This document shows, in pieces, positions 10,236 to 12,584 of a DNA stretch of 64,000 bases (position 1 is the stretch's first letter; each line of letters opens with the position of its first letter). The position numbers and the translations under genes were made by a program. Source of the DNA: an uncultured Candidatus Berkelbacteria bacterium (GTDB lineage: Bacteria; Patescibacteriota; UBA1384; CAILIB01); the NCBI GenBank assembly GCA_903834195.1, contig CAILIB010000040.1, forward strand, positions 7,297-71,296, read 5' to 3'. The notes beneath the pieces are model-generated. The model was not told the origin of the DNA and searched no databases. It saw nothing but the letters and a program-made list of their open reading frames with translations.

Positions 10236-12584
10236 TTGCTTGCAGACTACTCTGGCTGTCATACTAATAGCATGCAGATACTGAAGAAAATGCCTGGCGC
10301 GAAAGCTTCGCTTCTTCGCCGCACGTTCGCCTGGTGCGGAGTGCTTTTTCTCGTTTGCATGCAATCGAGTGCACTCCTACTCACATCAATAAAACAAGCC
10401 CGAGCTTTTACAAGTGTTGGGTATTTTGCAATTGATAACAGTTTTGCCTCTGGATCATCTCCCGTTGCTGGGGTCGCTTTTCAATTAACCATTCGTGCCT
10501 TTACTAACGGTGGAAACATCGTTACCGACTTTAACGACCAAGTAAGTCTCACTGATTTAACTTCATCAATCAGTCCTGGATTAACCACACCGTTCGTCAA
10601 TGGGGTATGGACAAACAACGTCATGATTACCAAATCAGCCAACGTTGACCATATTACGATGTTCTATGGAGCACTCAGCACGAGCTCAGTAGATTTCCAG
10701 GTTGCACCTGATACTCGCTTCACCAATCTTGCCCTCGTTTCTGGAAGTAACCAGTCTGGAGTTGTAGGAACAACTCTTCCTCAACCAATCGTCGTTAAGG
10801 CAATTGACCTGTACGGAAATGCAATTCCAAATATCACAATCAACTTTCTGATTGCTGCGTACCCACCAAATTCTTCTGGACAAAATTTGACCACCAATAG
10901 CGCCACAACTGGCGTATCGGGACAGGTAACAACTAACCTGCAAGCCGGCACGAAAGTGGGCACATACACGATTACTGCCCGAGTTGGTTTAGCAAATGGG
11001 CAACAGTTAAGCATTTACGAAAATGCAATCGCAGGACCAGTAACTAATCTTACTATTCAGCCAGTTATTACTGTAGTTCCAAAAGGTTCTGCACAACAGT
11101 TCTTCGCAAGTGCAACTGACCAGTATAGTAACCCAATTACAACATCCAACCCTTCCTGGAGTGTGATCAATGGCGGCGGAACTATCGACCAGAATGGAGT
11201 ATTCCTCGCAAGTAATACGTCGGGAAACTTTGTAAACACCATCAAGGCGCAAGTCGGAAGCGTAGGTGCACTTGCCACGGTTACCATTATTAATGAAACC
11301 AGTGGTACCTCTGAAGGCAACCAGCCAGGTGATGGAACATTTGGAAGTGGCGCGTCTGTTCCTCCACAAGGTAATCCTGGAGGCACAGCTGGTAGTAGTA
11401 GCGGTTCAAGCAGTGGATCTAGTTCAGGAAGTAGTTCAAGTGGAACAGATTCAGGTAGCTCCTCAGGAAGTTCCTCAGGCGGTTCTACCGGAGGCCATGG
11501 AACAGCAAATACTTTTGGAACCTCAAACACCTATGGAACCGGCACGAGTCAAACAAATGGCTCATCTCAGACAGATGGATCTTCCCAGACTGACGGCACG
11601 AGCCAAACCACTGGCACATCGACTACGTTTGGGACCTCAACCGATGACAAGCGAACTGGTGCTGGAATTCTAGATCGCATCTATGTTATTCCAAGCACGA
11701 TTAGCGTTTTTGCGAGCAGTTCACAACTTATTACTGCCCAAGGCTATGACATCTATAACAACATTATTAGCAGTGTTGCATTTGCCTGGAGTAAAACAGG
11801 AAATATCGGTGATCTCACCTATGCAAATGTGAATAGTACTCAGCTCAACGCAAGTAGCACACCCGGAAACGGAACTATTACTGTTGTTGCAACGCAAACC
11901 GATAGCAAAGGTACTGTGGTTACCAAAACAGCCACTGTTCCCGTTGCAGTTAAACAACAAACTGGTGGGCGTCTCGTATTCGATGCAATTTCTTCACCAC
12001 AAAAAACTGACACTGAGTTTACTGTAACAATTACCGCCAAGGACTACTCAGATAACATTATTGCGGGTTACCAAGGCCCTGCAACGCTTACTGACTCTAC
12101 CGGATCACTTCTTCCAAGTACTGCCACTCCATTTGTTTCTGGAATTTGGCGAGGTCAGGCAAAGATTCTGTACACCGGTGATTCAGTAACCATTACTGCA
12201 GTTGGAAGCGGATTATCAGGAGTAAGTAATGTCTTCAAAGTTGAAGGAGATAGCAAACCACTCAGCTTACGTAGCATTGGTGCTGCACTCTCTGGTGCCA
12301 TTTCTGCTATCACCGGACAAGGAGCATCAAGTGCCGCTGCATCTGCTGCAAAGTCATCTAGCGCAGCTTCATTGGTTCGAAACCTGGCAGCTGGTCTAGC
12401 AGCTGGTTTTGGCCTACTTGGCTCTGCAATCGGTATTGGCATGATGGTTGGTCGCGGCCTTGAAGCTATCGGTAGAAATCCGCTCGCAAAGGGCAAAGTG
12501 CAAATAAATATGTACCTTTCTCTAGTCATCAGCTTAGTTGTAGCTGCTATGGCAATCGTGGCAGCTATGGTAATCTTGACGTAA
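10236..12584 (+). CDS. Ig-like (Big_1/Big_2-like) surface protein with Ser/Gly-rich linker, fused in frame to a C-terminal ATP synthase subunit-c-like hairpin
   Basis: Probable start ATG 10272 ([11 protein letters not shown]..., signal/anchor '[19 protein letters not shown]'). Big_1-like '[29 protein letters not shown]'; Big_2-like '[22 protein letters not shown]'. The last 70 aa, '[70 protein letters not shown]', match the F0 c-subunit pattern G-x-x-IGIG-x(3)-G-x-x-LE-x-I-x-R-x-P. Stop lies 1 nt before the atpF ATG. Confidence 0.75.
11300..11660 (+). repeat. Low-complexity Ser/Gly/Thr-rich linker coding region
   Basis: Encodes [30 protein letters not shown]...[27 protein letters not shown]. 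Confidence 0.8.
12372..12584 (+). other. ATP synthase F0 subunit-c-like helical hairpin (possible internal TTG start at 12372 would give a 70-aa product)
   Basis: See the parent CDS. Helix 1 is GxGxGxG-like, the loop is 'RNP' (canonical RQP), and helix 2 '[27 protein letters not shown]' contains no Asp or Glu. Confidence 0.7.

Follow-up and report, generated by a model that had tools for sequence, protein, structure and literature searches.

A putative Ig-repeat surface protein anchored by a carboxylate-less c-type hairpin in an F-ATPase-like gene cluster of Candidate Phyla Radiation bacteria

Rotary ATPases are defined by the coupling of an ion-binding c-ring with subunit a, and a c-type hairpin that lacks the ion-binding carboxylate is presumably found within such a ring in the c1 subunit of Acetobacterium woodii (PDB 4bem). 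Here we analysed a stretch of 64,000 nucleotides (contig CAILIB010000040.1, positions 7,297 to 71,296; in the following the window) from an uncultured Candidatus Berkelbacteria bacterium of the Candidate Phyla Radiation (CPR), which harbours an F-ATPase-like gene cluster with a c-type hairpin devoid of this carboxylate. By analogy, the closest known system is the Type 2/3 F1-like X0 ATPase of mycoplasmas. These ATPases exist in addition to the genuine F1Fo as a second set derived from F1, contain no recognisable Fo and are required for a surface function, which is either gliding or the antibody cleavage by the MIB-MIP system; their X0 part includes a Protein 1 with 12 transmembrane (TM) helices and a cytosolic Protein 2, b and delta are missing, and Protein 5 combines a signal peptide and a large domain with two C-terminal TM helices (Beven 2012, PMC3369863; Toyonaga/Miyata, PMC11864180; Berlureau 2026, PMC12994834). 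In CPR bacteria, a recent preprint on the Pam pilus read the neighbouring genes as coupling to ATP production and concluded that there is no dedicated trans-envelope machinery; it does not mention a carboxylate-less fused c subunit, a missing subunit a or a missing arginine finger (Troman et al. 2026, 10.64898/2026.03.03.709456). Our literature search likewise yielded no description of a carboxylate-less or fused c subunit, or of the variant cluster reported here, in CPR.

Judged from its sequence, the element at 12372-12584 is a genuine c-type hairpin and a homologue of c subunits, and it appears to serve as the C-terminal membrane anchor of a secreted surface protein with immunoglobulin-like (Ig) repeats, which we call Ig-c. 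Ig-c would replace the c subunit in a CPR-specific paralogous complex made up of Ig-c, a b-like protein, delta, an alpha without arginine finger, gamma, an intact beta and a short epsilon. With a probability of roughly 60%, we read this complex as an F-ATPase-derived, ATP-operated and ion-uncoupled surface machine rather than an energy converter. The features of Ig-c, supported in part by an AlphaFold2 (AF2) model with its predicted local distance difference test (pLDDT) scores, are:

10236-12584, plus strand: Ig-c fusion gene, a single uninterrupted open reading frame (ORF) of 782 amino acids (aa) with TTG at 10236 and likelier starts at ATG 10272 or ATG 10290; Big_1 and ATP-synt_C matches on the same protein
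10326-10382, plus strand: hydrophobic core (19 aa) of a signal peptide, preceded by KASLLRR and followed by QARA (hydropathy scan and sequence reading)
10791-10988, plus strand: bacterial Ig-like domain, Big_1-like (Pfam PF02369, E 2.6e-7, under the gathering score; same match in the homologue of locus L009)
11322-11678, plus strand: Ser/Gly/Thr-rich low-complexity spacer of 119 aa (composition scan)
11685-12245, plus strand: two membrane-proximal Ig-like beta-sandwich domains (AF2, pLDDT about 80-90 there; Foldseek)
12258-12371, plus strand: Ala/Ser/Gly-rich tether of about 38 aa between ectodomain and helix 1, predicted to be disordered (AF2, pLDDT 30-43)
12372-12584, plus strand: c-type helical hairpin with Gly-rich helix 1, RNP loop (12474-12482), carboxylate-free helix 2 and stop codon (Pfam, phmmer, AF2, hhalign)
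12534-12536, plus strand: codon TTA of Leu767, in the column of the essential c-subunit Glu/Asp (ungapped alignments and column statistics)

A first-pass annotation of this DNA had delimited the hairpin as 12372-12584 and treated it as the atpE of the cell. Position 12372 is no gene start, and a free-standing atpE from TTG 12372 was ruled out, since no Shine-Dalgarno sequence precedes this codon, the frame is continuous from 10236 and the upstream Ig domains are conserved in homologues; as described below, sister genomes also point to a paralogue. The exact 782-aa protein has no database record, probably because the called start differs. The N-terminus of F-type c subunits lies on the outer face of the membrane, and therefore an N-terminal secreted ectodomain is topologically coherent, with the signal peptide probably being cleaved. 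The AF2 model comprised the last 299 aa of Ig-c (mean pLDDT 72) and placed helices at 226-264 and 266-298 of this segment, while the tether in front of them differs in length and sequence among homologues. By Foldseek, the Ig domains resemble the tandem Ig domains of the S-layer proteins SbsC/Sap, of LigA and of invasin. The membrane-proximal Ig module (SPQK..FTxTITAKD..SGIW) also occurs in giant proteins of 2,000-7,600 aa, with as many as about 20 copies per protein (375 representatives at E < 1e-30).

Homology of the hairpin to c subunits, which the first-pass annotation had assumed while allowing for the opposite, was borne out by several searches. Pfam ATP-synt_C (PF00137) matches with an E value of 4.6e-7 and scores 30.4 bits, where the curated cut-off is 24, phmmer against PDB chains gave 37 c-subunit matches to the hairpin with the Spirulina c15 ring (2wie) on top (E 1.5e-7, ungapped), and hhalign aligned 17 variant hairpins with 13 canonical c subunits, E. 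coli among them, at a probability of 99.6% and an E value of 1.7e-24 over 71 ungapped columns. A Gly-rich, GxGxGxG-like packing motif is present in helix 1; position 24, G27 and G39 are invariant in alignment A3, and helix 1 together with the EAIGRNP loop is near-identical between the variant and the canonical c types. The residue following RNP differs systematically, being E in canonical c subunits versus L/M/F/Y, then A-K/R, in the variant. Thus, of the attributes of the c family, Ig-c has the fold, the loop and the Gly-rich helix, and lacks the carboxylate as well as the form of a small free proteolipid (about 70-90 aa per hairpin).

With regard to the carboxylate, positions 12372-12581 translate into 70 aa followed by the stop codon, and helix 2 contains not a single Asp or Glu, exactly as noted in the first-pass annotation. 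The sole acidic residue in these last 70 aa is E743 (GLEAIGRNP) at the cytoplasmic end of helix 1, the equivalent of which is equally found in canonical CPR c subunits. In the Pfam, phmmer and hhalign alignments alike, Leu767 falls on the essential carboxylate, so that the placement of a Leu in this column, and the profile alignment proposed as a check on it, came out as expected. Among 53 distinct fused hairpins the column is occupied by L (24), V (15), I (11), A, M and F (one each) and never by D or E, and neither TM helix carries an ionisable residue in any of these sequences. The anticipated conservation in orthologues hence applies to the lack of a carboxylate, but not to the Leu itself. 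Because all 53 variants are devoid of the carboxylate and all 47 canonical CPR c subunits have Glu at this place, the Leu reflects more than chance. The variant hairpins conserve the loop and the helix ends and vary freely in the middle of helix 2, a pattern suggesting that docking of gamma and epsilon has been kept and ion binding abandoned.

Besides the carboxylate, the second partner of ion coupling is missing as well. Subunit a (PF00119) was not found in the window, where Pfam assigns the 10 multi-TM ORFs to other families or to no family; tblastn of three canonical a subunits against the window gave only E values above 0.4, and canonical c subunits matched only 12378-12524. Moreover, an a gene is absent from each of the roughly 33 variant loci scanned, and the positive control, the a subunit of locus L037, gave an E value of 1.4e-41. 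We considered the DUF2207 membrane protein at 8481-10220, which has a Gly-rich C-terminal tail and lies directly upstream of Ig-c in the place of atpB, as a substitute for a and rejected it, since it is not shared by the other variant loci. A conserved multi-TM partner common to all variant loci was not found either: a TMEM260-like glycosyltransferase, a holin-like protein and a VirD4-like ATPase are neighbours only within a sub-clade. Because the carboxylate is missing in all family members and neither the cluster nor the 64 kb contain an a gene, the data support the earlier proposal that this membrane sector cannot be a conventional ion-driven rotor.

The remaining cluster genes follow Ig-c in the order of an F1Fo operon:

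12586-13116, plus strand: b-like peripheral-stalk protein, one N-terminal TM helix and a long charged helix (assigned by its location, length, hydropathy and a weak resemblance to canonical b)
13113-13661, plus strand: delta/OSCP (Pfam PF00213, E 3.4e-14)
13671-15302, plus strand: alpha paralogue with retained P-loop GDRKSGKT and a C-terminal extension of about 40 aa (Pfam and alignments)
14748-14750, plus strand: codon CTT of alpha Leu360 at the arginine-finger position (E. coli aR376, bovine aR373)
15302-16171, plus strand: gamma (Pfam PF00231, E 4.4e-45)
16210-16653, plus strand: ORF of 147 aa between gamma and beta, no Pfam match and no homologue in other variant loci
16741-18156, plus strand: beta paralogue with intact catalytic motifs GGAGVGKT (17212-17235) and GERTREG (17305-17325)
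18199-19209, minus strand: repeat protein of 336 aa between beta and epsilon, not found in other variant loci
19286-19525, plus strand: epsilon of 79 aa, beta-sandwich domain only (Pfam PF02823, no PF00401)

The b-like protein has no match to Pfam ATP-synt_B (PF00430) and is kept in 30 variant loci. Two subunits of the head deviate throughout the variant clade. Epsilon measures 79-118 aa and lacks the C-terminal helical, inhibitory domain, in comparison to about 140 aa with PF00401 in canonical CPR epsilons. In alpha, Leu360 aligns to the Arg of GIRPAINVG in a solved F1 structure, and the arginine finger is replaced by L, M, F, I or Q in 26 of 26 variant sequences, whereas R or K occupies this position in 39 of 39 canonical ones (G-x-[RK]-P-A-x-N). 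As a side aspect, 20 of these 39 canonical CPR alphas (L035-L081) carry Lys instead of Arg (AGMKPAINVG), which is odd for bona fide ATP synthases, and the alpha P-loop of the variant locus L034 is degenerate (GEKKVHKA). In beta, the P-loop, the catalytic Glu (GERxxE), Walker B and YVPADD are kept in 20-21 of 21 variant sequences, and because of this retention the nucleotide chemistry is probably still under selection. Measured against an F1Fo complex, the cluster hence possesses the catalytic beta and is devoid of subunit a and the arginine finger.

The variant genes are also separated from canonical ones by descent, since the 26 variant alphas and the 21 variant betas are each monophyletic versus canonical CPR sequences in neighbour-joining trees. 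On the contigs L037 (CAYYKL010000011) and L057 (CAZVUJ010000004), variant alpha, gamma, beta and epsilon genes lie about 4.5 kb from a full canonical operon that comprises a (PF00119, E 1.4e-41), c with Glu, b (PF00430), alpha with Arg and epsilon with PF00401. L026, from the same metagenome-assembled genome as L037, ends with Ig-c, b and delta and is probably the contig adjoining L037. The first-pass annotation had named a canonical atpE elsewhere, with the present copy as a paralogue, as the finding that would overturn its view; this situation exists in the sister contigs, while canonical atp genes are found neither in the window nor in short extensions at both of its ends. Because both gene sets occur on one contig and alpha and beta form a separate clade, the sequences identify the cluster, in the lineage of L037 and L057, as a paralogue belonging to a specialised complex; it is not evidence for a loss of ion-coupled ATP synthesis.

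For the distribution of the family, we used a scan of species-representative genomes and an exhaustive HMMER search, as word-indexed homologue searches gave few members. The scan separated two locus types, fused (about 33 loci) and canonical (about 45 loci), and the HMMER search added 14 fused representatives. Fused clusters occur in about 33 CPR/Patescibacteria species genomes with labels including CPR2, CPR3, Berkelbacteria, Microgenomates and "Saccharibacteria", and the fusion was found independently in JGI, NCBI, ENA and Logan assemblies. Their gene order of Ig-c, b-like, delta, alpha, gamma, beta and short epsilon is conserved; canonical loci show the order a-c-b-delta-alpha-gamma-beta-epsilon with a c subunit of 71-80 aa (GRNPEA..KIQTNMILGxAFAEAIAIY). 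The fused protein measures 650-830 aa, but reaches 1,386 to about 2,590 aa in CPR3-like genomes. There, the ectodomains fused to the hairpins of L031 (3077-10846) and L034 (3182-10897) contain NHL repeats as well as Big_1/invasin domains and are about 2,570-2,590 aa long. In L028 (3-4163) and L034, ABC-ATPase-like and FtsX/MacB-like permease genes are inserted between Ig-c and the b-like gene, and a few loci contain split ORFs (L029, L032, L033). In the sub-clade of L008-L010, L015, L022, L026, L032, L037 and L057, the variant cluster is flanked by the TMEM260-like glycosyltransferase with 8 TM helices, the coupling ATPase of VirD4/TrwB type, the holin-like protein with 4 TM helices and an SBP_bac_5 protein.

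The neighbourhood of the cluster is rich in genes for putative surface proteins:

19765-22178, plus strand: two paralogous secreted two-domain pilin/adhesin-like proteins of 399 and 368 aa, both ending in ..AKY (AF2, Foldseek)
23015-25218, plus strand: fn3/WxLIP-like protein of 306 aa with N-terminal signal and C-terminal TM helix, then a protein with Big_13 and dockerin domains (Pfam, hydropathy)
19765-26982: whole surface-gene block after epsilon, with the pilin-like pair, the fn3/WxLIP-like gene, the Big_13 and dockerin gene and two more families

The model of the 368-aa protein (pLDDT 92.6) consists of a signal helix and two beta-sandwich domains, and Foldseek relates it to pilins and adhesins of the CfaE/CfaB, SdrG/ClfB, FocH, SpaD and FimA type. 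Homologues of the pilin-like genes flank 14 variant loci and none of the canonical ones, and fn3/WxLIP-like and Big_13/dockerin genes lie directly upstream of Ig-c in about 10 loci; overall, homologues of the block, which unites pilin-like with chaperone-like and Ig/dockerin genes, stand beside 10-14 variant loci, either after epsilon or directly before Ig-c, and beside no canonical locus. At the other end, a giant ORF of at least 1,765 aa on the minus strand (1-2400) runs off the window start (extended in L083, 1-5295), and relatives of it adjoin Ig-c in L028, L031, L033 and L034. The window also contains three tRNA genes, two for tRNA-Met(CAT) and one for tRNA-Lys(TTT), at 30074-30148, 32623-32699 (minus strand) and 43006-43080 (minus strand).

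How might such a machine work? With its Fo ion path dismantled (no a, no c carboxylate), it would perform neither ATP synthesis from an ion gradient nor ion pumping. The hairpins would still form a ring that docks gamma and epsilon, as suggested by their invariant Gly-rich helix 1 and EAIGRNP loop, and a bundle of Ig-repeat arms, joined to their N-termini by the flexible tethers, would extend from the cell surface. ATP binding and slow hydrolysis by beta could turn, ratchet or conformationally switch this ring, and in analogy to the mycoplasma F1-like X0 ATPases its action may operate, assemble or hold pili or adhesive fibres for host contact. Several points weigh against this picture. The arginine finger is lost in all 26 variant alphas, and F1 mutants with Ala at this position keep unidirectional rotation, at a rate 1e3-1e4 times slower and with about half the torque (PMC5380711), which together make fast rotary work unlikely unless another residue compensates. 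Lacking subunit a, the complex has no obvious element that would hold the b-like stalk in place relative to the ring, a multi-TM partner conserved among the variant loci was not found, and a disordered tether of about 38 aa, as modelled, would carry torque poorly. Evidence for the canonical operon comes from the sub-clade of L037 and L057 only, to which the window does not belong, and the pilin-like genes of the window match PamA/PamB neither by sequence nor in a PDB search. Finally, ring formation, topology and expression of the Ig-c complex are predictions.

Some of these observations would equally suit a static scaffold or sensor, in which the ring is a multivalent anchor for Ig fibres and a non-rotating head binds ATP as a hub or switch, for example in assembly, gating or signalling of the energy state. 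The loss of the finger in all variant alphas, the lack of a as stator, the flexible tether and the degenerate alpha P-loop of L034 speak for this possibility, which we nevertheless consider rather unlikely, as the P-loop, catalytic Glu and Walker B of beta are kept, the persistence of gamma, epsilon, delta and a b-like stalk over deep divergence is difficult to account for in the absence of mechanical coupling, and the finger mutants of F1 still rotate (PMC5380711). That the cluster is the sole ATP synthase of the organism, ion-coupled via an unconventional site or partner, might be argued from the complete F1 subunit set and from the lack of canonical atp genes in the window and its short extensions. 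We think this highly improbable in view of the TM helices without ionisable residues in 53 sequences, the missing a and arginine finger, the canonical operon alongside in sister genomes and an ectodomain of 700-2,500 aa that has no role in ion coupling. The N-ATPase family keeps a and a Na+-binding c, and this assignment was dropped as neither is seen here.

The near-identity of helix 1 and EAIGRNP in the two c types also raises the idea that Ig-c inserts into the canonical c-ring and thereby tethers surface fibres to a real ATP synthase. Acetobacterium woodii c1, with PDB 4bem among our phmmer matches, presumably provides a precedent for a carboxylate-less hairpin in a mixed ring; yet dedicated b, delta, alpha, gamma, beta and epsilon genes always accompany Ig-c, and the systematically different residues after RNP suggest orthogonal docking, so that we give this arrangement very little credence. 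A decaying duplicate or pseudogene cluster, or else an annotation or assembly artefact, could account for several functional residues being lost together and for the split ORFs of L029, L032 and L033, but it is effectively refuted by conservation: long intact ORFs persist with their motifs in more than 30 species-level genomes of several CPR lineages, and the fusion was recovered from four assembly sources independently. Going beyond the ATP-operated surface machine favoured above, it is conceivable, if speculative and in our opinion doubtful, that the Ig-c ring with its F1-like head is an unrecognised kind of CPR surface machine. It might be an ATP-driven, ion-independent rotor or ratchet that moves its own fibres, the basal platform or anchor of Pam-type pili or host-holding fibres, and an intermediate between F1Fo and the mycoplasma F1-like X0 ATPases, in which the two-TM Protein 5 would be a diverged c subunit.

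Whatever its exact operation, a conserved and widespread lineage keeps F1, the predicted stalks and a c-type hairpin, drops the carboxylate, subunit a and the arginine finger of alpha, and welds the hairpin to a large Ig-repeat protein. An active complex would mean that, besides the path taken by the mycoplasma F1-like X0 ATPases, evolution has converted an ATP synthase into a surface machine in a second way. The cluster also offers a concrete candidate for the energy source or the anchor of CPR host-attachment structures. Furthermore, calls of "ATP synthase" in CPR genomes, including those beside pilus operons, should not be taken as evidence for chemiosmotic ATP production unless the c carboxylate, subunit a and the finger of alpha have been checked.

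The Pam system combines secreted two-domain pilins and membrane-anchored chaperone/FnIII proteins in one operon, and the neighbours of Ig-c in the window appear to be the same kinds of genes, with consistent folds and topology, but without a sequence match to PamA/B. In Ca. Mycosynbacter amalyticus, the organism of the Pam preprint, the abundant atpA/atpD (QHN42722/42726) lie far from the pam accessions (QHN43268-43274), which, as far as accession numbers can tell, would fit two ATPase sets.

With F1Fo c/AtpE (PF00137) and the atpBEFHAGDC operon, the cluster shares the hairpin fold, the Gly-rich helix 1, the R-N/Q-P loop, the gene order after c and the catalytic motifs of beta. It differs by the lack of the helix-2 carboxylate, subunit a, the arginine finger and the C-terminal domain of epsilon, by the fusion of its hairpin to a secreted ectodomain of 650-2,500 aa, and by forming a separate clade that co-occurs with the canonical operon. 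As proposed for Ig-c, a c-type hairpin without carboxylate also sits in the rings of A. woodii (c1) and of V/A-type ATPases with duplicated c/K subunits; in those rings the other hairpins keep the carboxylate and a is present, whereas in the CPR variant every copy lacks it and a is absent.

In contrast to the mycoplasma F1-like X0 ATPases, the CPR cluster keeps a b-like protein, delta, the N-terminus of alpha and a recognisably c-like hairpin, and it has no 12-TM Protein 1; the arginine finger, lost in the CPR variant, is conserved in the G1-ATPase of M. mobile. Common to both are a second F1-derived set beside F1Fo (here in L037 and L057), the absence of a and of an ion path, ties to surface systems and the occurrence in tiny host-dependent bacteria. 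In its layout, Ig-c also matches the published description of Protein 5, which might point to a kinship of the two.

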